A DNA stretch of 56,648 nt from IMG/VR virus record IMGVR_UViG_3300048834_000930, positions 1-56,648 of that record. One strand, given 5' to 3'. Source of the DNA: a virus. Lineage: Duplodnaviria; Caudoviricetes. Within the stretch, counting starts at the first letter, position 1. Each line of letters starts with the position of its first letter. The notes under the pieces are model-generated. The model was not told the DNA's origin, searched no databases, and worked only from the letters and a program-made list of their open reading frames with translations. Below are positions 1-41,641 of the stretch, one piece after another. The position numbers were made by a program, and so were the translations under genes.

Positions 1-1
1 A

Positions 2-61
2 CTGTCGATGTCCGAACGCGAGGCTGCGGCGGTGCGTCGAGTTGCAGCCGAGTGCCGGTGA
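2..61 (+). CDS. 3' end of a gene truncated by the window start
   Basis: Open frame LSMSEREAAAVRRVAAECR ends in TGA at 59-61, just before a promoter. Confidence 0.3.
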   Translation: MSMSEREAAAVRRVAAECR

Positions 62-62
62 G

Positions 63-91
63 TTGCGGCGCAATATGCGGTGCGCTACTAT
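63..91 (+). promoter_or_regulatory. sigma70-like promoter of the XRE gene, with operator-like box
   Basis: TTGCGG(63-68)-N17-TACTAT(86-91); spacer contains ATATGCGGTGCGC (73-85); in-frame GTG 6 nt downstream at 98. Confidence 0.6.
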
Positions 92-97
92 CGGCAG

Positions 98-388
98 GTG
101 CCACCGCGCAAAATCACCACGAGCCCGATGCCAGCACTGATCGGCCCGCTCGTCGCCGCAGCACGGCAGGCCGCTGGAATGACCCAGACCGGTCTAGGCG
201 AGGCCGCAGGCGTCCCGCAGAGCCACGTCGCGGCCATCGAGGGCGGGCGCGCTAACCCGTCCACTGAGATGCTGGCGAGGCTAGGACACGCTCTCGGCGT
301 CGACCCAGGAGCGCTTTTGCCCGACCTTGAGCGGATTCGATCCGAGTTTGGCGCGGATCTCGCTGGTCTGCAGAAAAGTGGAGGCTGA
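98..388 (+). CDS. XRE/Cro-C1 family HTH transcriptional regulator (possibly Aca-like)
   Basis: ARQAAGMTQTGLGEAAGVPQSHVAAIEGGRANPSTEMLARLGHALGV is a canonical HTH_3 pattern; start 98 (leaderless GTG) or 128. Confidence 0.9.
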   Translation: MPPRKITTSPMPALIGPLVAAARQAAGMTQTGLGEAAGVPQSHVAAIEGGRANPSTEMLARLGHALGVDPGALLPDLERIRSEFGADLAGLQKSGG

Positions 389-392
389 CTAC

Positions 393-421
393 TTGCGAAT
401 GATATGCGGCGCGCATATATT
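393..421 (+). promoter_or_regulatory. sigma70-like promoter with palindromic operator
   Basis: TTGCGA(393-398)-N17-TATATT(416-421); palindrome ATATGCG-N3-CGCATAT (402-418) overlaps the spacer and -10. Confidence 0.65.
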
Positions 422-460
422 CTCATCACCGGGCGACGAGATGGCGCCCGCGAATCCAAG

Positions 461-841
461 ATGACCACCCTGACTCTTTACCGCGCAGCCGATGCCGACA
501 CTTGGAGCGACTGCGCCAGCTTTGCGGAGAGTCGCGAGGCGGCGGAGTGCTACCTCGATAACCCAGGGTTCGGCGGATCGCGACTGTGGGTCACTACGGT
601 CGAGATCGACGAGTCGGCAGTGCTCGATCTGACCGATTGCGATGACGCCGTGGCCGTCATTGCCGACCGCATCGGCAGTGAGCACCCAGGCGCCATCGGG
701 GCCGACGAGTATGCTCCTCGCGTCTCATATGAGCTCCGCGATGCTGGTGTCGAGTGGGTCCGAGTGCGGGAGTCATACCCGGCGGACACGATCACTTGGA
801 TTTTTGTCGGGTCGGATGACCCTGAGTTGGAGGGGATATGA
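461..841 (+). CDS. small acidic hypothetical protein, possible ADP-ribosyltransferase-like fold
   Basis: Pattern LYRA...SFAESREAAECY...VLDLT...LRDAGVEWV...WIFV resembles phage ART-like domains; ATGA overlap with next gene. Confidence 0.6.
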   Translation: MTTLTLYRAADADTWSDCASFAESREAAECYLDNPGFGGSRLWVTTVEIDESAVLDLTDCDDAVAVIADRIGSEHPGAIGADEYAPRVSYELRDAGVEWVRVRESYPADTITWIFVGSDDPELEGI

Positions 842-1140
842 ACATTTCAATCGATTACATTTCCACGCATTCATCAACCCATTGCAACGCCTATTGTCAG
901 TTCGTCGCCACCATAGGCGACGAGAAATATGAACTGGCAGCGTCAGTCGGAGCTCGTGACTCCTACGCTGGCACCATCGCAGCCAGCGGCGCTGGTGTGA
1001 CCAAGGCGATGGTCTCGGCCTGGTGCGAAGATCCATCCGACTTCGCCACGGTGCCGCAGGAGCACCGCGAAGCTGTCGAGGAAGCGCTTCTGCGCTCCGC
1101 ATGGCGCCTCTGGCAAGAGGCCGAGTTAGTTCACGATTAG
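838..1140 (+). CDS. small acidic hypothetical protein
   Basis: GGAGG RBS, translationally coupled ORF, 100 aa. Confidence 0.7.
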   Translation: MNISIDYISTHSSTHCNAYCQFVATIGDEKYELAASVGARDSYAGTIAASGAGVTKAMVSAWCEDPSDFATVPQEHREAVEEALLRSAWRLWQEAELVHD

Positions 1141-1151
1141 GCCGCGCCCAC

Positions 1152-1206
1152 CCCTAAGCTCGCCCGCAACGCATCCGAAAGGACGAGCGTGCGGGCTTAG
1201 GGCGTT
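1152..1206 (+). repeat. intergenic hairpin motif, copy 1
   Basis: CCCTAAGCTCGCCCGCA...GCGGGCTTAGGGCGTT; related copies at 1932 and 24487. Confidence 0.75.
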
Positions 1207-1914
1207 ATGGAGTACAGAGTATGGAACCCTTCAGAGTGCACGGAGGAGGACGCCCGCGTCATCGAGGCTGAGGATGCCTCACAAGCGGAGCTTACAGCTA
1301 TGACCACCATGAGCGAAACCATGAGCGCATCACACTCCGAGGACGGAGGGTCCGGGTCCTGGTCCGGGTCCGAAGTCCAAGCCGCGTTGAGCGGCGTGAA
1401 ATCGTGCTATCACAAGGATGATTGCACGCCATACGCAGAATACAGTGCGCGACTCACCGACGCCATTGAGAGGGCTAGGGCCCTCCTAAAAAAATGGGGG
1501 CCAGGAGAGGTAATTTCCGAGCCATTCGTGTTCATGAATTTGCTACGACGATACGCTCCTAGTGAGCTAGTCGCGGTGGCGGAGCAGAGGTACACGGACC
1601 ACCTGTCTGTTTGCTCCCAGTGTTATGGGCACGGGAGCCAAACAAGTTACGGCCAGTGCCCGTGGTGCCGCAATGGGATTGTCGGCCCGTTGGGGGCCGA
1701 TGATCGAGTTTGGGCCGAGTACTTCCACGGCGATCTCATGATATTGTGGGGCTCCATACGGGAGTATCAGGCCGCCGGATTCGACCCATCGCACGCTCAC
1801 GCCGCCTGGTTGTTCGGGTGGCCTGCGGCGTCCGGCATCGTTGACATAGAGACCATGCGCGCACACGCGTTGCGCATGGTCAAAGTCGAACTGGTATCAA
1901 GACGATCTGCGTAG
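1207..1914 (+). CDS. hypothetical protein with CxxCxGxG zinc finger
   Basis: CSQCYGHG...CPWCRNG; 235 aa ORF. Confidence 0.65.
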   Translation: MEYRVWNPSECTEEDARVIEAEDASQAELTAMTTMSETMSASHSEDGGSGSWSGSEVQAALSGVKSCYHKDDCTPYAEYSARLTDAIERARALLKKWGPGEVISEPFVFMNLLRRYAPSELVAVAEQRYTDHLSVCSQCYGHGSQTSYGQCPWCRNGIVGPLGADDRVWAEYFHGDLMILWGSIREYQAAGFDPSHAHAAWLFGWPAASGIVDIETMRAHALRMVKVELVSRRSA

Positions 1915-1931
1915 CCTGCCGCAATATTTCA

Positions 1932-1982
1932 TCGCCCGCACCGGCCCGTCAGGGTGTTCGGGCGGGCTTAGGGCGTTGGAGG
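1932..1982 (+). repeat. intergenic hairpin motif, copy 2
   Basis: TCGCCCGCAC...CGGGCGGGCTTAGGGCGTTGGAGG. Confidence 0.75.
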
Positions 1983-2009
1983 CCGTCCAGTTTCGTGGAC
2001 GGATACATC

Positions 2010-2306
2010 ATGGAAGACATCAAAGCCAAGCGAGATCATGCACTATTTACACGGGGGTCTTTTGCGTCGCTGAGTCACGCCAGTGACTACCGTCACGCCT
2101 TTCATGCGGCGTGGCAGGCGTACTACCGCCGCGCGAAGCTATTGCGGAGATCGATCACCGCAAACCAAGCGGCTATCCGAGCGGGCCACGGTCTCTTGCT
2201 GGACCTGCCTGGAGGCATGCGGGAGGCACGCGCACTTCTCCGCCACGCCGCGGCGCAGCGAGAGCAATACATCTCCACCTACGGCTCGCCGATGGCTGAT
2301 GATTGA
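2010..2306 (+). CDS. hypothetical protein
   Basis: ORF downstream of hairpin motif copy 2. Confidence 0.6.
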   Translation: MEDIKAKRDHALFTRGSFASLSHASDYRHAFHAAWQAYYRRAKLLRRSITANQAAIRAGHGLLLDLPGGMREARALLRHAAAQREQYISTYGSPMADD

Positions 2307-2337
2307 CGCTGGCGCCGACGCGTGGGATCTGTGACCC

Positions 2338-2808
2338 ATGCCCACGCCAGCCCAACTTCGAAGATTCGCCAGGGTCGCGATCTCTGCCGCTCAGGACCCC
2401 TCATTTCAGCGAGATCTCGCGTCGGTCGACGATCATGAAGCAGACCAGCGCATCATGAGATTTTGGGAGCAGGCTCGCGGCTCACTAATTTCAGTGATTC
2501 GCGAAGAGCTTGGAGCTCGGCACGAGTGGGAAAGCCCCGCTCAATTCGAGATCGAGGTCAACAAATGGAGCCAAGCAGGATTTGGGTCTGAAGACGCTGT
2601 TGCGTGGATAAAAGAAACCTCGAATCCACTAGCCGCGCAAATGCTTGCCGAGCGCGGGTGGACGCCGAGAATGCACAAAGAGTGCCGCGTCGGTGGTCGC
2701 ACGGTCTGCGAACTCCTGTCGAGATCTCGCATGGACCCATCCGTGATTCCGCCGATCGAGGTCGCAAAAGCGGCTAGGTCGGCACAGAAGCGTCGTAGGC
2801 ACTCTTGA
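2338..2808 (+). CDS. hypothetical protein
   Basis: 156 aa ORF; WSQAGFGSEDAVAW motif similar to YQAAGFDPSHAHAAW in 1207..1914. Confidence 0.65.
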   Translation: MPTPAQLRRFARVAISAAQDPSFQRDLASVDDHEADQRIMRFWEQARGSLISVIREELGARHEWESPAQFEIEVNKWSQAGFGSEDAVAWIKETSNPLAAQMLAERGWTPRMHKECRVGGRTVCELLSRSRMDPSVIPPIEVAKAARSAQKRRRHS

Positions 2809-2833
2809 CAGCGCGCTACTAGCCTGGCATCCT
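2805..2833 (+). promoter_or_regulatory. promoter of the CRISPR-like mini-array
   Basis: Perfect TTGACA (2805-2810)-N17-CATCCT (2828-2833) with upstream TG; no credible gene follows. Confidence 0.6.
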
Positions 2834-2845
2834 GCACTCACCGCG

Positions 2846-2949
2846 GTTTTCCGGGTTTGCATCCGGCCCCATTGAAGATTGTTGTTCCGCGGTGTCGATC
2901 TTTCAGATCGATATTTTCCCGCCCAGAAATGGACGGGCCCCATTGAAGC
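2846..2949 (+). CRISPR. cas-less CRISPR mini-array (degenerate repeat, 34-nt spacer, repeat), type I-G(I-U)-like repeats
   Basis: R1 GTTTTCCGGGTTTGCATCCGGCCCCATTGAAGA (2846-2878); spacer 2879-2912; R2 ATTTTCCCGCCCAGAAATGGACGGGCCCCATTGAAGC (2913-2949, 37 nt); both have an internal hairpin and a GGCCCCATTGAAG 3' end. Confidence 0.75.
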
Positions 2950-2990
2950 CCACGCAGTCAATATCGCTCGGCGCGTGGGCTTTCGCTTTG
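2946..2990 (+). terminator. intrinsic terminator closing the mini-array transcript
   Basis: AAGCCCACGC (2946-2955) pairs with GCGTGGGCTT (2973-2982), followed by T-rich TCGCTTTGATTTT. Confidence 0.6.
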
Positions 2991-3128
2991 ATTTTCACGG
3001 CGTAGAGTGCCGCTGAATTGCGCCGAGCAGAGCGATGCGCTACATGAGAGTAGCCCCCGACCTTAGCGAGAAATCGCCGAAGTCACCTTTGCTCCACGTT
3101 GCCGCGAGGCACGTGGATTTTTTTTTCG

Positions 3129-3533
3129 TTACCCAAGCCGCCGAATCGCTACAATCTTACCCGCATCAAATTGCTTCGCGCGCACGCGCTTCCCCTGATT
3201 CCCACCAAGAATCCAGACCGATTCACCATCGAGACGCACGAAAAGCCCGACGTGATAGCCGCCCGGCCGTTGTAAAACAACGACGTCGCCGGGCAGGGCG
3301 AATCGAGCGTTTGCAATAGCTTCGCCCACGTGTCGCCACGACGCCGCGCGCAAGGCCTTCGGCGGTACCGGAGCGCCGCAGGCGGTGGCGATCACCTGCA
3401 TGAAGATGCCGCACCACGCGAGCCGCTGGCCTTTTGCCCACGGAACAATCTGCGCAATCCAACCTGCGACGATCGGGTCCGATTCTTTGATGCCGTAGTA
3501 ACGATGCGCCTCGTAAAGCAGCGCCTTGTTCAT
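3129..3533 (-). CDS. TIGR02594-type NlpC/P60/CHAP-like peptidoglycan hydrolase (endolysin candidate)
   Basis: YYGIKE...AWCGIF...LRAASW...PGDVVVLQR..GYHVGLF...ILGGNQ signature. Confidence 0.85.
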   Translation of the reverse strand: MNKALLYEAHRYYGIKESDPIVAGWIAQIVPWAKGQRLAWCGIFMQVIATACGAPVPPKALRAASWRHVGEAIANARFALPGDVVVLQRPGGYHVGLFVRLDGESVWILGGNQGKRVRAKQFDAGKIVAIRRLG

Positions 3534-3661
3534 ACGAGCTTCTCCGCCTTCGCCTTGCGCCAGAGCTTGAAGATCTTGAATGCCGCCAGAACGACGACGG
3601 TCACGATGGGGATGATGAATTCGTCGAGGATGACTTGCACGGCTTCGGCGTCAATGTCCAT
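3530..3661 (-). CDS. 43-aa single-TM protein, holin-like
   Basis: Translated by hand: MDIDAEAVQVILDEFIIPIVTVVVLAAFKIFKLWRKAKAEKLV; ATGA overlap with the hydrolase; below the ORF-track cutoff. Confidence 0.65.
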   Translation of the reverse strand: MDIDAEAVQVILDEFIIPIVTVVVLAAFKIFKLWRKAKAEKLV

Positions 3662-3744
3662 GCAACCATCGTGATGCAATAGCTCAATCGCGCCGAATCA
3701 AGGCCTTCATTTTGCGAATCCCATCGCATTGGCATGATCGCCCC

Positions 3745-5094
3745 GTGCCAACCGCAGACCGCAAGCACCAGTGCTCAATCGGGGGCATCAAAGTCGTTCA
3801 CAAGTCGAGCTCGCTCAACACGGGTCGCCCGCACAAGACCCACACTTCGGCAACGCGCGACTATTCAGAGGTTGAAGCGCTCCCGTTTCCATCGGAAATG
3901 TTCAGCGAAGAGGTCGACGTCGTCGGCGATAACTTCGATTTGATCGTGCTTCAAATCCTCGAATTGCTCGCGGGCAAGGGGCCGGTCGAGTATGTGCATC
4001 CGACACGCGGGCCACTTTATGTCGTGTTGCAATCGCCGGCGGTGGTGACGGAGCGCCCCGATCGGGTGGTCAACAAGACCCGTCTCCGATTCGATTTCAA
4101 GGTCGCGGCTGTCGAGCCCCCCGTCGGGCCGAAGAAGTTGCCCGCGACGGCGAAGGCCAAAATCGCCATTGCCCAAGAGGGCCTCGACGCTGACTTCGAT
4201 GCCGCGGTCGACACAAACAAACTTGGATTTGCGGACCTCATCAAAAACGTCGTCGGCAAGATTCTCGACGCAGCAGATTTCATCGGGGGCATCAATGGCA
4301 CAGTCGCCGGCAAACTTGCGATCGTGAGCTCGTTGACCTCGGCAATCAAAGAGCTTGAGCGCTCGGTCAATACTTTGGTGCACACGCCGGACCTCGTTCG
4401 CGCGTCGCTCATGTCGCTCGTGATTGCGACGGGAAACCTGGTCAAAACAGCGACCGAACGCTACACCAGCCTTGCACCATTTCGTGCGGCAAACGAGGCA
4501 GCCTCGCAGGGATACGGCCAAGCACTCGGGGCCGTCGGCGGTGCCGATGGGCAAATCAACATCACGCGCCCGGTGGATGCGTCGATCACCATGCTGTCGG
4601 CAATGAAGAAGAGCAACGAGCTTGAGCTCGACGTCTCCGAAATTCCCACGGGTGACGACCAGACGCCGGAGCGCGCGGCCGAGCTCGAAGCGACTCAAGC
4701 GATTCAACGTTGGACTCGAGCGACGCTGGTCATGCAACTCGCGGGTTCGCTCACCAATGTCGAGTGGGAGAGCGAGTCGCAGGTTCGGCATGCGATGGCT
4801 GTCCTGCAGGCTGAAATTGCGAAAGTTCGCGCCGACACTGGTCATTCGCCCGAAACGATTCGATCCCTTCGCGCGGTGACACTTGCCCTCGTTGCCTATC
4901 TCGATTCGCAGCGCTCGCGCTTGCCCGAGCTGCGCATTGTGTCGACGAAGCGGGCGCGCAGCATTGTCTTGCTGGCCTACGATCTCTTCGGTGACGCCTA
5001 CGCCTATCCGCGCCTTCTCTCACGCAACGTCGACTCGATAACCGACCCTGGCCGTCTGCCAAGCGACATCGATCTGGAGGTGCTCGGTGATTAG
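3745..5094 (+). CDS. Mu gp43-like DNA circulation / tail-baseplate protein
   Basis: N-terminus DRKHQCSIGG...GKGPVEYVHPTRG; C-terminus LLAYDLFGD...LLSRN; precedes baseplate hub; start refined to GTG 3745. Confidence 0.8.
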   Translation: MPTADRKHQCSIGGIKVVHKSSSLNTGRPHKTHTSATRDYSEVEALPFPSEMFSEEVDVVGDNFDLIVLQILELLAGKGPVEYVHPTRGPLYVVLQSPAVVTERPDRVVNKTRLRFDFKVAAVEPPVGPKKLPATAKAKIAIAQEGLDADFDAAVDTNKLGFADLIKNVVGKILDAADFIGGINGTVAGKLAIVSSLTSAIKELERSVNTLVHTPDLVRASLMSLVIATGNLVKTATERYTSLAPFRAANEAASQGYGQALGAVGGADGQINITRPVDASITMLSAMKKSNELELDVSEIPTGDDQTPERAAELEATQAIQRWTRATLVMQLAGSLTNVEWESESQVRHAMAVLQAEIAKVRADTGHSPETIRSLRAVTLALVAYLDSQRSRLPELRIVSTKRARSIVLLAYDLFGDAYAYPRLLSRNVDSITDPGRLPSDIDLEVLGD

Positions 5095-11574: not shown

Positions 11575-11913
11575 ATGAACGACACGTTGACGACAATCTT
11601 CGAACTCTCGTCTTCCGCCATCGGTTCCGAATGGTCGAGCGCTGGAGCAATCATCGCTTTCATGATTTGGCTCGTGAAGCGAGTCATGCGGCAAGCGCAA
11701 AAAGACGTGGGCCAGCTCCATCAGCGATTCAACAACCTCGATGCCCGAAATAACACGATCGAATCACAGCTCTCGGAGTTGCGTTCGCTGCGAGAGCGCG
11801 ACATTGGACGAATGCGGGACGTCGAGAAAATGCAGATCGAGACGATGGATCGCGTGACTGAAATCTGCGAACGCGTGGAGAGCTGTCCAAATCTCGCAAA
11901 CGGCCGGGCCTAG
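11575..11913 (+). CDS. single-TM plus coiled-coil protein (holin/spanin-like)
   Basis: AGAIIAFMIWLV TM segment followed by heptad-rich helix. Confidence 0.6.
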   Translation: MNDTLTTIFELSSSAIGSEWSSAGAIIAFMIWLVKRVMRQAQKDVGQLHQRFNNLDARNNTIESQLSELRSLRERDIGRMRDVEKMQIETMDRVTEICERVESCPNLANGRA

Positions 11914-14900
11914 GCCACGATCGAAAAGCTCTCGCTGTTCGTCGTTCCTGGCTTTCCTGACGTCGTTCGATAGTCCCAACGCACGGAGACGGTGCCGGCC
12001 TTCGTGCCCGGCGGAAAGTCTTCAGTCTCCCATTCGTACGTCGCAACTCCGGTCGCGACGTCGAAGGTTGTTGCGTTGCGAATCTGCTCGACGCCGCTCT
12101 TCGGCAGTTTGAAAAGCAGTCGAACCGTCGTGTTGTCAATGTCGGCCGGAAGGTCGGACAACGTGCAGATAAGCGGCTTTGCAGTGTCTCCGATGCGTGG
12201 CTGATACGCGGGTGGGATGGTCATTGTTGCGGTCCTCGAATCGATCGAGAAGGTCGATGTTCGCGATGTGATTTCAAACTTCGCACTCGTTGACGTGATT
12301 GCAAAACTCGGGAACGAGCCGGGTGCGGGTGTGTTGGGATTGGCCGCCGGGCTTATCGCTGTCGCCGTGAATGCGCGGGCACGCGGTGAATTGCTTTCAG
12401 GGTAAACCTGCGCGCCGCTGTCGATCGATGCTTCGTTCGCTATGCTCGCGGGAAGTGTTGGCTCAGGCGTGATGTCGACGGTGCCGGTTCCCGTGGCACT
12501 CGCTGCATTCGCCACCGTGGCGGGGGCTGAGCTCGCCGGCGTGATATCTGCCGTGCCAGTCGCGTTGGCCGTCGATGCATTGGCTAGGGCCGCAGGTGCG
12601 GAGCTTGAGGGGGTAAGCTCGCTGCTTCCCGTTGACGTTGCTGTGGTCGCGCTTGCAATCGCACCGGCCGTGTTCGCAGAGGGGCTTGCCGATGCATTGC
12701 CGGACGCAGCGGCCGTCGTCGTGTGAGCGAGCGATGACGCCTCTGTGCCCGATGGGGTTACACTCGAGTTTCCCGTAGCGATGAGTGTGGCGGGGTTTGC
12801 AATTGCGCCGGCCGGCGGACTCTCGGGCGTGACTTCATTACCCTCCCCGGTTGCTGTTGCAGAGTTTGCCGAGGCCGCAGGAGCGCAACCCTCCGGCGTG
12901 ACGGCTGCGTCTCCGTAGGCCGTTGCCGTTGAGGTGTTGGCGATTGCCGCTGAATTGCAGCTCTCGGGCGTGGCAGCCGCATTGCCGGTCGCGTTCGCGG
13001 TGCTGGCGTTGCTGGTCGCGGCAGGATCGGGGCTCGACGGTGTCGCGCTAGCGTCTCCCGTAGCCGTCGAGGTTGATGAATTGGCGATCGACGCAGGACT
13101 GTTGCTCGCGGGTGTGGCGTTTGCGTCTCCGGTAGCCGTCGCGGTCGATGAGTTGGCGATCGATGAGGCCGCAGGACTCTGCGGCTCAGCGGTCGCAGTT
13201 CCGCTTGCCGTCGCCGTCGAAGCAATAGCAATGCTCGCCGCTTCGTTGCTCGCGGGTTCGATTGTTGCCGATCCTGTCGCGCTGGCGGTCGCATCGTTGG
13301 CGATTGCACTGGCCGGAGTGCTCGAGGGCGAGGCGTCGGCGCTGCCGGTACCGACCGCCGTCGCTGAATTGGCAATGGATTGCGGAGAGGTTGCCGCCGG
13401 CGAGGCCGATGCGTCGCCGCTCGCACTTGCCGTCGTGGAGTTGGCGACACTGGCCGCGACGGTTGAGTCGGGCGTGACCGTTTGGTCGGACGCGGCTGCG
13501 GGCAACTTGAGCGCAAGGTAGGCAATCTCAGCAGTGCCCGCGCGCGGCGTGTCCCAAGTGATCGTCGGTGTTCCCGTGAGGCTGAGCGATCCGACATCGA
13601 TGACGCTCCCGCTCGAATCGTAATGGCCGATTGCTCGCGACGTGTCGCTTGCTTGCGTGCCTTCGGTCAGCGACCCGATGAGGTCCGCCCACGTGCGAGC
13701 GTGCGACTGACCGCTTGCATCGGCAACGCCGACGGCCATATTTACGTGGCCAACGATGACGTCTTTAACATCGCCACCGGTGACGACGATCATGAGATCT
13801 GGATCGTCAATCGACCCGATAGACGTCGTCGATGCGCTCGCCGCCTTTGTGACCGTCCCGATGTCAATCTCTGCGCCGTCAAGAAAGAGTGCGAAGTGAG
13901 TAAACGAGTCGCTATCACTACCACTCCATGAGATATCCGAGTATCCTAGCGACGTTGCGCTTGCTGACCAGGTTTCAGCATTGTTATAAATCTGCTCAGA
14001 AAACGCATCGGTTGCGAGTTTTGAGTGAACGTGCGAGCTGCTGCCATCTGGAGAAAATGCTGACCACCCGACGCACCACTGCTTGAGATCGTCGGATATG
14101 TCTTTAGCGATTGCCCCAAACGCGAACATGGGGCCGTCTGTCGACAGAGTAAACGTGTTCGCCGTTGTTGAAACAAGGACGAGGTCTGGAGTAAATTTAG
14201 CTGCGCCAAACGGAAGCGACCCCGAACTTACAGCCGTGGCGTAGTTCCACCATAACATCGTTCGGCCGCCAAAGGCGATCCAGTGGATGATCCTCGACTC
14301 CGTGTCGGTCGTGGTGAAATTTATCGAGAATCCGTCGGATGTTGCAGTTACGGTGCCTAACCGAGATGTGTTGTTGTAGATGTACCCGTAGTTGGATCCG
14401 GCAGCGCGCCGCCCCTTTGTTGCATACGATGCGGCGTCCGCCCGGCCAGCTCCATGATAGCGCCCTGAAGTGGATGCCGAGAAACCGACCCCTTGGCCTG
14501 AAACCTGCGAAGTTCCAGTTCCTGCGGATGTCCACAAGTAGATCGCTTTAGGGGTGAATGACAGCCCGGTGACTACCGATGTGGATCCGGTTGTAGTTGG
14601 CGCGTTAAATGTTCCAGACGCGCAATGGATATCCGGCTGCGAAACCGCGAGCTTACGACTCGGTAAAAATGCATCGCCATTAGCCACGCAGAGATAAAGC
14701 GAGTCCGATTCGTCAAGCGAACCAAACTCAATATCGAACGTGATCGATGTGTCGCTCCACGATGTAACGGTCTGAACAACGGATGTGCCTACGCCGTTTT
14801 GATACGAAGTGCTAAGGATCAGATCATAGGCTTGCGTTGCACCAAATCCAGCGCCAGTAGCAACGACGCTCACCGAGTCTGGACGGGCGAGGTCATTGCA

Positions 14901-14936
14901 GTTGATTGCCGGATCTTTAATGTTGGTGAAGTACAT
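11910..14936 (-). CDS. 1008-aa fibre/appendage-like protein with Ala/Ser/Thr repeats and C-terminal BppU-N-like domain
   Basis: Beta-rich N-terminal half, about 15 imperfect 24-aa repeats, C-terminus IGDTAKPL...GVATYEWETED...G. Confidence 0.75.
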   Translation of the reverse strand: MYFTNIKDPAINCNDLARPDSVSVVATGAGFGATQAYDLILSTSYQNGVGTSVVQTVTSWSDTSITFDIEFGSLDESDSLYLCVANGDAFLPSRKLAVSQPDIHCASGTFNAPTTTGSTSVVTGLSFTPKAIYLWTSAGTGTSQVSGQGVGFSASTSGRYHGAGRADAASYATKGRRAAGSNYGYIYNNTSRLGTVTATSDGFSINFTTTDTESRIIHWIAFGGRTMLWWNYATAVSSGSLPFGAAKFTPDLVLVSTTANTFTLSTDGPMFAFGAIAKDISDDLKQWCVGWSAFSPDGSSSHVHSKLATDAFSEQIYNNAETWSASATSLGYSDISWSGSDSDSFTHFALFLDGAEIDIGTVTKAASASTTSIGSIDDPDLMIVVTGGDVKDVIVGHVNMAVGVADASGQSHARTWADLIGSLTEGTQASDTSRAIGHYDSSGSVIDVGSLSLTGTPTITWDTPRAGTAEIAYLALKLPAAASDQTVTPDSTVAASVANSTTASASGDASASPAATSPQSIANSATAVGTGSADASPSSTPASAIANDATASATGSATIEPASNEAASIAIASTATASGTATAEPQSPAASSIANSSTATATGDANATPASNSPASIANSSTSTATGDASATPSSPDPAATSNASTANATGNAAATPESCNSAAIANTSTATAYGDAAVTPEGCAPAASANSATATGEGNEVTPESPPAGAIANPATLIATGNSSVTPSGTEASSLAHTTTAAASGNASASPSANTAGAIASATTATSTGSSELTPSSSAPAALANASTANATGTADITPASSAPATVANAASATGTGTVDITPEPTLPASIANEASIDSGAQVYPESNSPRARAFTATAISPAANPNTPAPGSFPSFAITSTSAKFEITSRTSTFSIDSRTATMTIPPAYQPRIGDTAKPLICTLSDLPADIDNTTVRLLFKLPKSGVEQIRNATTFDVATGVATYEWETEDFPPGTKAGTVSVRWDYRTTSGKPGTTNSESFSIVA
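12350..13480 (-). repeat. about 15-16 imperfect 72-bp (24-aa) coding repeats
   Basis: Units such as TPDSTVAASVANSTTASASGDASA and SPAATSPQSIANSATAVGTGSADA; boundaries approximate. Confidence 0.85.
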
Positions 14937-24486: not shown

Positions 24487-24543
24487 GAGCTCGCCCGCAC
24501 CGTGTCGCATTTGCGATGATCGGGCGGGCTCAAGGCGTTGAGG
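24487..24543 (+). repeat. intergenic hairpin motif, copy 3
   Basis: GAGCTCGCCCGCAC...CGGGCGGGCTCAAGGCGTTGAGG. Confidence 0.75.
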
Positions 24544-40639: not shown

Positions 40640-41641
40640 ATGGATCTGAAACAGTATCACCGCGAGGTTGCGCGGACGTTTCCGAGCGATGAGCAGCATG
40701 GCGCCACTTCGGCGTGCGAGATTCACTACCTCTGCTCGTGCATCGCTGATGCCATGCGGGATAGTTGCTGTGTCGAGCGGCGCAAGAAGACAGCTTTTTA
40801 CGCCGGCTCAATGACGGATGAGAAGCGGAATCGACTGATTGAGAAGCAGGTGTCGATGCTCAATCGGCTAGATCCGGCAATGAAGACTTTGGAGCAAAGA
40901 TGCAGTGTTGATCGCGAATGTAGCGCGCAGGCCCGCAACACGCTCCATGCTCTGGCGGGCGTATGCGGTGAGATCCATGAAATCGCCATTGTACTCGCCG
41001 AGGACAAGGGGGGCCTGATGCTTGCCGATGAGGTTGGCGATATCCTGTTCTACCTCACGGCACTTTGCAACGCGAATGGCATTACCCTCGAAGATGCGAT
41101 GCGCGCAAACGTGGCCAAGCTTCGCGCTCGGTACCCTGATGGATTCTCGGCTGATAAGGCGGTGAACAAAGACGAGGCTGCGGAAGAATTGGCGATGGGG
41201 GCAGAGGTGCGCGCAAACACCAATACTGAATCGACGATCAATGAAAAGCAACTTCTTGACGCCGCTCGTGTCATCTCTAAGGCGCGCGGGTGCACGCTTG
41301 GTCAGGGTGTCGATGCCATATTTCGTGCGGCTGAGCTGCTAGATAAGCCTGAGAAGGTGCTTGAGATGTCACGCGATAGGTCATCGCCTAGCGAGGTGGG
41401 GATTGAGGTTGGGTATGTGTACGCACACAAGAAGAGTGGGTCCACTTACAGTGTGCTTCACATTGCCACTGATGCTACAAACTCGCGCGATGGCAACTTG
41501 GTTGTCGTTTACAGGCGATATGACCCAAAGACGCGCGAGTGTGGCGTTCAGGTGTTCGTGCGTGACATCAATGAGTTTCGAGAGAAGTTCGATTGTGGAG
41601 GGGTAAGCGACTGTCCGGAGAAGGTGAGCAGTGGACGTTGA
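40640..41641 (+). CDS. MazG-like pyrophosphohydrolase fused to a DUF1653-like domain
   Basis: GVCGEIHE...DEVGDILFYL...N..KL.ARYPDGFS; C-terminal YAHKKSG..Y.V...A....VVVYR...VFVRD..EF. Confidence 0.8.
   Translation: MDLKQYHREVARTFPSDEQHGATSACEIHYLCSCIADAMRDSCCVERRKKTAFYAGSMTDEKRNRLIEKQVSMLNRLDPAMKTLEQRCSVDRECSAQARNTLHALAGVCGEIHEIAIVLAEDKGGLMLADEVGDILFYLTALCNANGITLEDAMRANVAKLRARYPDGFSADKAVNKDEAAEELAMGAEVRANTNTESTINEKQLLDAARVISKARGCTLGQGVDAIFRAAELLDKPEKVLEMSRDRSSPSEVGIEVGYVYAHKKSGSTYSVLHIATDATNSRDGNLVVVYRRYDPKTRECGVQVFVRDINEFREKFDCGGVSDCPEKVSSGR

Follow-up and report, generated by a model that had tools for sequence, protein, structure and literature searches.

What do the small genes behind a repressor gene at the left end of a phage contig do for the phage that carries them? 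The window examined here is the whole of IMG/VR record IMGVR_UViG_3300048834_000930 (56,648 nt, classed as linear, CheckV completeness 82), by its gene content a temperate phage with a contractile tail. An earlier note, made from the letters of the DNA, had taken positions 63-2808 for an anti-defence island in the manner of anti-CRISPR (Acr) operons and the anti-CRISPR-associated (Aca) proteins that repress them. We find that the first gene behind the repressor, open reading frame (ORF) 461, encodes a small protein with the predicted fold of an ADP-ribosyltransferase (ART), and that its best solved structural match is the anti-CRISPR AcrIF11. The island is best read, by analogy, as working like an acr-aca locus, no Aca or Acr family membership being shown, and ORF461 is, on the strength of its model, a good if unproven candidate for an anti-defence weapon.

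The predicted enzyme and its family

AlphaFold2, run on the family alignment, modelled ORF461 at a predicted local distance difference test (pLDDT) score of 96.3, and the predicted structure is that of an ADP-ribosyltransferase. In a Foldseek comparison with the Protein Data Bank (PDB), the only match at E ≤ 0.001 was 6kyf (E 1.5e-4, template-modelling (TM) score 0.55), followed by ParT (6d0h, E 2.4e-3, TM 0.60), MbcT, RES toxins and NatT, with diphtheria toxin, cholix toxin and exotoxin A as further matches. The predicted viral structures of BFVD gave nine matches at E ≤ 0.001, among them models of ART-PolyVal type, including 'PolyVal ADP-Ribosyltransferase'. The structure in 6KYF is that of AcrIF11; this anti-CRISPR ADP-ribosylates Csy1 and was seen to be an enzyme only once its structure had been solved, as reported in 10.1101/2024.08.26.609590. 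The two proteins are of similar size (137 residues are listed for 6kyf, as compared to 126 in ORF461), are both encoded by mobile elements and share an ART core with a helical insert and an acidic residue shortly after it.

Which residues might form the active site? In the alignment of 35 family members, Arg8, in strand 1 of the model, is conserved in at least 90% of the sequences. As read by eye, most members, though not all, have Ser20 (strand 2), and every one has Glu or Asp at position 104, where the fifth strand, the one after the helical insert, ends. Arg8, Ser20 and the acid at 104 may be the residues of an NAD pocket. An Arg/Ser/Glu-type pattern is reported for the clade of T4 Alt and Mod, and an H-Y-D pattern for the ARTs of polyvalent proteins, in the part of PMC5512222 at hand; by sequence, a take-over role like that of T4 Alt would be equally compatible with the residues of ORF461.

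At least 110 relatives (protein clusters) with 40-93% identity were found at E ≤ 0.01 among 125 candidates, all of them unnamed or 'hypothetical'. None of the 35 aligned members credibly matches an ADP-ribosyltransferase or other family in Pfam at E ≤ 1 (the best match is at chance level, E 0.01), ORF461 matches no PHROG or PADLOC model, and NCBIfam returns only a chance-level match to RecX (E 0.083). With no match to any model in these four libraries, the family appears to be undescribed. Keyword searches of the literature, which cannot work by sequence, gave no description of it either. Its members were found only in uncultured material, without a match in the collections of phage and plasmid records.

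Pattern scans yielded 65 loci of the family, 56 of them distinct and 42 distinct with full-length matches. Among the latter, 27 are stand-alone genes (ORFs ≤ 200 aa), eight lie in ORFs of at least 400 aa and seven are intermediate; L005 was counted among these seven, and its longer duplicate L024 encodes a 443-aa protein. In three loci (L007, L034 and L064), the module is part of a long protein with Mu-type portal and/or MuF domains (Portal_Mu, Phage_Mu_F), a portal-MuF fusion gene stands immediately upstream of the L005/L024 homologue, and in L008 the fusion partner is a cytosine (DNA) methylase that has a topoisomerase I core. A separate, true Pfam ART-PolyVal domain is present as well in L064 and in L011, the latter a partial match. 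Fusions of the polyvalent type have been proposed to be virion-delivered, injected early effectors, as the accessible part of PMC5512222 has it.

How close, then, is the family to ART-PolyVal (PF18760; PMC5512222)? Both occur as modules of giant phage proteins of the portal/MuF or methylase kind, at times side by side in one protein, and the viral models that match ORF461 in structure include ART-PolyVal-like ones. They differ in that 0 of the 35 family members match PF18760, that hhalign gives a probability of only 0.14 for the ORF461 profile against the ART-PolyVal domain of L011, that the H-Y-D residues reported for ART-PolyVal are Arg/Ser/acid here, and that in this phage the domain is a free-standing gene behind a promoter-like site.

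The MuF proteins of L007 (4999-7212) and L005 (2222-5638) also match the Pfam family of the anthrax lethal factor N/C domain below threshold (E 0.003-0.006), and the matching part is presumably akin to a metalloprotease. The ORF461-like module lies in the same protein as this match in L007 and in a neighbouring gene in L005.

A putative repressor gene between two promoter-like sites

As the earlier note had it, the run of small genes is headed by a helix-turn-helix (HTH) gene of the XRE type (Table 1), with Pfam matches to HTH_31 (2.1e-13) and HTH_3 (2.7e-12) and a PHROG assignment to transcription regulators. The HTH domain spans about residues 6-65 of 86, and Pfam finds no second domain. An alternative start at GTG 80 would give 102 aa; it is unlikely to serve, because the codon would lie upstream of a P1 transcript start. 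The nearest solved relatives in the PDB, such as ClgR, C.AhdI and SinR, are by sequence controller proteins and small repressors that bind operators; none of the 19 PDB matches at E ≤ 0.01 goes by the name of Aca. PADLOC returns generic HTH matches only, and NCBIfam generic XRE or antitoxin matches that are all below cut-off, the best being the Y4mF/HipB antitoxin subfamily (E 9.8e-11, 41.4 bits, cut-off 71.65 bits).

Two promoter-like sites, P1 and P2, can be read directly on either side of this gene, where the earlier note had placed them. A promoter consensus scan lists three promoter-like sites in positions 1-3800, as compared to 1.2 ± 1.2 in shuffles. Both spacers hold the 13-nt box ATATGCGGYGCGC, at 73-85 and 402-414, which are its only two exact copies in the window; when the intergenic stretches on either side of the HTH gene are compared without gaps, they match best at 12 of 13 positions. 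The second copy extends to the perfect palindrome ATATGCG-GCG-CGCATAT at 402-418 (O2), and the first (O1) keeps the left arm and the core, with four of seven positions of the right arm and three mismatches to the full palindrome. That both copies sit between the hexamers, and in the only two gaps that flank the HTH gene, adds weight to the match for which we have no clean number.

An inverted repeat inside the core promoter, which the earlier note had likened to anti-CRISPR control, is indeed what lies between and over the P2 hexamers, and is the design described for Aca-repressed promoters in the part of PMC9410906 available to us. The island further shares with acr-aca loci the small HTH repressor gene, the placement of small accessory genes on a mobile element and the prediction that expression comes as a burst that limits itself. 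Relaxed forms of the box are not enriched genome-wide (4 matches as compared to 5.84 expected, and 3 as compared to 2.18), and there is therefore no sign of a wider regulon.

Other members of the ORF461 family have repressor-like neighbours of their own. In L026 (1598-2703) and L062 (4578-5675), the translated sequences appear to hold a divergent XRE-type gene upstream of the ORF461 homologue, and the homologue is followed by a similar small acidic ORF with the motif ...ICERA..GD..A..ECARVI... In L003 (5846-5928), the palindrome GACATATGTC occurs twice, about 68 nt apart, upstream of the homologue and with HTH-like genes nearby; by sequence, the setting resembles that of the island, with another operator. 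Inverted repeats are found upstream of the enzyme gene in all three loci.

Table 1. Positions of the features discussed, counted from the first letter of the window
Feature	Position	Strand	Details
ORF461	461-841	+	126 aa, isoelectric point (pI) 4.05; predicted mini ADP-ribosyltransferase-fold protein (AlphaFold2, Foldseek)
HTH gene	128-388	+	XRE family, 86 aa, from ATG 128
P1	63-91	+	promoter-like; TTGCGG 63-68, 17-nt spacer, TACTAT 86-91; weak match to the sigma-70 consensus
P2	393-421	+	promoter-like; TTGCGA 393-398, 17-nt spacer, TATATT 416-421; consensus scan 9/12
O1	73-89	+	operator-like box in P1 spacer; exact box match 73-85
O2	402-418	+	perfect 7-3-7 palindrome, P2 spacer into -10 hexamer; 0 mismatches to ATATGCGNNNCGCATAT
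ORF838	838-1140	+	100 aa, pI 4.64; undescribed family
Intergenic hairpin	1152-1206	+	arms 1152-1167 and 1187-1202; ends in the 16-mer GCGGGCTTAGGGCGTT; no U-run after it
ORF1207	1207-1914	+	235 aa, pI 5.07; CXXCXGXG-type zinc-finger motif
Second intergenic hairpin	1934-1977	+	with the 16-mer GCGGGCTTAGGGCGTT; fold z only -0.56
ORF2010	2010-2306	+	98 aa (103 aa from GTG 1995), pI 10.2
ORF2338	2338-2808	+	156 aa, pI 9.2
CRISPR-repeat-like units	2846-2878 and 2913-2949	+	two units around a 34-nt spacer
Terminator-like hairpin	3102-3126	+	intrinsic type, with T-run (terminator scan)
Left repeat copy	50-88	+	39-nt imperfect direct repeat; last codons E-C-R-stop of upstream ORF and most of P1
Right repeat copy	3005-3043	+	39-nt imperfect direct repeat; E-C-R-stop again
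Cell-wall hydrolase gene	3129-3533	-	TIGR02594/CHAP-like; NCBIfam 72.1 bits, above cut-off; Pfam, PHROG
Baseplate-hub gene	3712-5094		Pfam, PHROG
Integrase gene	16689-17909		gene annotation
Large terminase gene	44873-46384		gene annotation
Portal gene	46432-47727		gene annotation
Tail sheath gene	52129-53556		gene annotation
Tape-measure gene	from 54913		cut by contig end

The end of the island, its other genes and its likely insertion

The run of small ORFs ends, as had been claimed, at CRISPR-repeat-like sequence. Two such units begin 38 nt past the last gene, ORF2338, and both give full-length alignments to the Rfam family CRISPR-DR16 (21.5 and 20.9 bits; E 0.014 and 0.021 in a 361-nt search). 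They share the 13-mer GGCCCCATTGAAG and the 3' end CCCCATTGAAG, and differ in the stem by paired changes. The spacer between them (2879-2912) contains the palindrome TCGATCTTTCAGATCGA. Like Racr and other phage CRISPR-like RNAs described in the accessible parts of PMC10651486 and bioRxiv 10.1101/2024.10.29.618823, they are repeat-like units without cas genes, encoded in a phage beside candidate protein inhibitors. They differ from Racr as described there in being two divergent units with a spacer instead of one solitary repeat, in their sub-threshold Rfam scores, and in that no dedicated promoter was identified for them; they apparently form the end of the P2 unit. Downstream, the stretch 3047-3130 folds with a z-score of -2.45, and the terminator-like hairpin within it is likely to end the island transcripts.

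The remaining genes say less about function. ORF838 starts on the stop codon of ORF461 (ATGA), after a GGAGGGG ribosome site, and is, to judge from this arrangement, translationally coupled to it. Its family counts 38 cluster representatives at E ≤ 1e-3, and its model reaches a pLDDT of 96.6 without a significant solved fold match in the PDB (best E 0.44). As a conserved partner of the enzyme ORF838 was rejected, its profile finding the family in 0 of the 65 other ORF461 loci. ORF1207 was alone among 856 candidates and has weak RING-like Pfam matches; ORF2338 has one relative (53% identity), and for ORF2010 a search confined to viral contigs found none. The latter two match no family in Pfam, PHROG, PADLOC or NCBIfam, and NCBIfam has nothing for any of the five ORFs bar the RecX match mentioned above. 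Atlas look-ups of ORF1207 and ORF2338 returned scores under 0.9 only, and PDB sequence searches with ORF1207, ORF2010 and ORF2338 nothing below E 0.3. The description of the five as small orphan genes, often acidic, thus needs qualification: ORF1207 found only itself, while ORF461, ORF838 and ORF2338 do have relatives, and three of the products are acidic, two basic. GC3 exceeds GC2 in all five frames. Neither the other five island proteins nor the two flanking proteins tested have relatives in the 65 ORF461-family loci, and the CRISPR-like repeat end was not found in the other ORF461 loci, which is uninformative as their hosts differ.

Two of the gaps between these genes hold GC-rich hairpins followed by the 16-mer GCGGGCTTAGGGCGTT (at 1191-1206 and 1962-1977); the first hairpin, 1152-1206, folds at -32.2 kcal/mol (z -2.63). 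A copy with two mismatches and a similar hairpin stands at 24524-24539, before a RecE-like gene at 24538. By sequence, GCGGGCTTAGGGCGTT looks like a phage-wide intergenic element, be it for RNA processing, attenuation or the context of ribosome sites. Its presence outside the island suggests that the island uses the phage's own regulatory grammar.

How did the block get there? It is bracketed by an imperfect direct repeat, whose copies are identical at 29 of 39 positions (74%); among 3000 real 111-nt windows, none matches the P1 region as well as the right copy does. Both copies have a TTGCG-type hexamer after the stop codon and GCGCTAC at the end. The E-C-R-stop of the right copy ends an ORF at 2879-3016 (...GVECR), a short frame without other coding sign. 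Of the two copies, only the left holds the operator box; the right has a different spacer. In the simplest reading of these sequences, about 2.95 kb (about 62-3043) would have been inserted between the stop codon of a tail gene and its terminator, with duplication of the junction. This supports the view of the block as a discrete, inserted island of dispensable-looking accessory DNA. The right copy also carries a third promoter-like site (3018-3046; TTGCGC, 17-nt spacer, TACATG), with some 55 nt of structured sequence between it and the terminator; the stretch 3018-3126 may encode a small RNA, or may simply represent the 3' untranslated end that the tail operon had originally.

The upstream gene, which ends at 59-61, is probably the tape-measure gene. 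The ends of the record do not overlap. If they are joined head to tail, the tape-measure frame runs on for 20 codons to that stop codon, one base before P1, and the earlier placement of the island between the tape-measure gene and gp43 on a circular map is plausible; the join itself proves nothing, because an open run of 20 codons is expected by chance about half the time, by our own estimate. On the other side, a 49-aa hydrophobic ORF and the TIGR02594/CHAP-like gene lie on the minus strand (3129-3679), between the island and the hub gene and in an orientation that is odd for a tail module.

No close relative of the phage or its island turned up. The DNA of 1-3100 has no match in phage records, tblastn found neither the hub protein nor ORF461 there (nor ORF461 in plasmids), and viral-contig searches with single ORF461, ORF1207, P0113, hub and ORF2010 sequences and with an ORF838 alignment gave no relatives. 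There is therefore no relative with an 'empty site' for comparison. Among sequencing runs, none of RNA was listed as containing the stretch; in one DNA run that contains a small share of it, two 151-nt contigs of 80% likeness cover only 1965-2227.

Elsewhere in the window, a 1008-aa ORF without a PHROG match lies on the minus strand at 11910-14936, in a stretch with an unusual AT skew of -0.26 to -0.16 and a GC content above its surroundings. A MazG-like pyrophosphatase gene is found at 40640-41641 (PHROG 229, 7.5e-26), of a family often discussed in conflicts between phage and host over nucleotides.

What the island may do

Several observations weigh against an anti-defence island built like acr-aca. 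The structural matches of ORF461 are moderate (TM 0.55 for AcrIF11, 0.60 for ParT), with toxins scoring nearly as well. The family profile, run against PDB sequences at E ≤ 10, returned two unrelated weak matches and no AcrIF11, and no membership of a known Acr family emerged by sequence. The Arg/Ser/acid pattern differs from the H-F-H-D residues that the accessible part of 10.1101/2024.08.26.609590 reports for AcrIF11, a comparison by sequence and not by equivalence in three dimensions. The likeness to AcrIF11 is at the level of the fold only, without detectable sequence similarity to the ORF461 family, and none of the island genes is homologous in sequence to a validated acr. As for layout, the regulator gene heads the locus behind a promoter-like site of its own, whereas in acr-aca loci (PMC9410906) it comes last, and one type of operator is here common to two promoters. 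P1 fits the consensus poorly and is missing from the scan's list, and the shared box, though present in both spacers and perfect at O2 as had been noted, is out of strict register, its distance from the first hexamer being one base shorter in P2 than in P1. A 12/13 match turned up in 62 of 5000 shuffles and in 52 of 5000 real windows taken from the genome, so that the box match alone stands at about p = 0.01 before its position inside both spacers is counted. HTH_3 was found in only 3 of the 76 ORFs flanking 26 stand-alone or intermediate loci, and a repressor partner is therefore occasional, not obligatory. The CRISPR-DR16 scores are below the Rfam gathering score of 35, and 20 other ORF461 loci have no Rfam match at gathering level, which is again uninformative as hosts differ. 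Four of the five island proteins, finally, offer no functional clue.

An early host-directed or counter-defence role is nevertheless favoured, because the ART fold, the fused and probably injected modules of the family and the adjoining CRISPR-like RNAs all point that way. In this sense the earlier anti-defence reading stands in part, by virtue of the AcrIF11-like fold and the repeat-like units, and in part does not, ParT and the RES toxins matching nearly as well as AcrIF11.

We infer promoter activity, repressor binding, operon structure, the enzyme's activity and target, and the anti-defence effect along the following lines. Roughly 62-3043 would be about 2.95 kb of accessory DNA in the tail-gene region, after the upstream stop codon and with the XRE-type repressor gene first. 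A dimer of the repressor would bind the palindrome over the P2 spacer and -10 hexamer, as well as the weaker copy in its own P1. On entry, both promoters would fire until accumulating repressor shuts both, which would give a short early pulse. Transcription from P2 would cover the five genes and the pair of CRISPR-repeat-like RNA units and stop at the terminator (3102-3126). The product of ORF461, as an NAD-using enzyme of the ART fold, would modify a host protein, most plausibly a component of a defence system as AcrIF11 does, and the other island products may be further host-directed factors. That the island is an accessory operon pulsed by its repressor, with an enzyme that modifies a host protein, be it for host modification or counter-defence, we regard as about evenly balanced between true and false. 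It is doubtful that the target is CRISPR-Cas. A dual anti-CRISPR island of protein and RNA, in which a new mini-ART of the Arg/Ser/Glu type ADP-ribosylates a Cas protein, the RNA units mimic the repeats of the same CRISPR type and a regulator-first, two-operator circuit sets the pulse, would be an attractive but rather unlikely explanation.

Alternatively, the enzyme could serve host take-over. T4 Alt, ModA and ModB ADP-ribosylate host proteins in favour of phage gene expression, and Alt is packaged in the virion. By the same logic, the targets of ADP-ribosylation by ORF461 would be RNA polymerase, translation factors or further housekeeping proteins, under the HTH control described above; we think this rather unlikely. 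Its conserved residues follow the pattern reported for the Alt/Mod clade, but neither Pfam nor PHROGs yields a match to a family of Alt/Mod type, and the top solved structural match is an anti-CRISPR. Virion-associated fusions of the family domain are reminiscent of packaged Alt, but in this phage the gene shares one unit with CRISPR-repeat-like RNAs and resides in dispensable-looking accessory DNA.

The main rival, which we consider decidedly unlikely, is a toxin-antitoxin or abortive-infection module. ORF461 would then be a RES/ParT-like, NAD-dependent toxin, checked by the XRE protein or by ORF838, and the module would act in prophage stabilisation or phage exclusion. ParT (6d0h), MbcT, RES-Xre (entries 6gw6 and 9r35) and NatT are among the top structural matches, and the RES/ParT-Xre systems (6D0H, 6GW6, 6FKG) have an ART-like fold that scores comparably; the conserved Arg, Ser and acid recall the RES triad, but no RES Pfam match (PF08808) was found in ORF461 or its 35 relatives at E ≤ 1. 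Xre-RES systems have the XRE gene directly upstream of the toxin gene. The island repeats this order, but the enzyme gene stands behind a promoter-like site of its own instead of in one operon, and the pairing is not kept across the family, XRE neighbours being as rare as reported above. The best NCBIfam match of the HTH protein is an antitoxin subfamily, albeit below cut-off, but the protein is a DNA-binding domain plus a short tail, without the toxin-binding C-terminal domain of those systems. ORF838 overlaps the stop codon of ORF461 as an antitoxin gene might, but its family is missing from the other ORF461 loci. Lastly, the frequent occurrence of the module within portal/MuF polyvalent proteins is more in keeping with an injected effector than with a resident toxin.

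It is very unlikely that the shared box is a coincidence or a relic of the repeat duplication, with an unrelated HTH protein and ORFs that are constitutive or late accessory genes of mixed function: a match as good occurs in about 1 of 100 shuffles or real windows, P1 lies largely inside the repeat and may owe part of its promoter likeness to it, and the terminator scan lists none in the stretch from the upstream ORF to the HTH gene, which would permit late read-through, but the right repeat copy, with its different spacer, lacks the box, a perfect palindrome lies exactly over the P2 core, and the only two exact copies in 56.6 kb are both in the gaps flanking the HTH gene.

What would a repressor-pulsed, host-modifying enzyme mean? 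To our knowledge, few enzymatic anti-CRISPRs have been identified. The ORF461 family has the same predicted fold as AcrIF11 with different conserved residues, and comes as a solo gene or as a module of supposedly injected proteins. The island packs a dedicated regulator, two operator-like sites, an enzyme candidate and CRISPR-repeat-like RNAs into one compact unit, which makes for a testable cassette. Its regulator-first, two-promoter variant of the aca theme may escape guilt-by-association searches that expect the regulator downstream of the acr genes. Were the dual anti-CRISPR explanation true, the many relatives of ORF461, free-standing or virion-fused, would represent a large store of anti-defence enzymes that has so far gone unnoticed. 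With a target other than CRISPR-Cas, the family would still contribute a new class of small phage effectors that use NAD.

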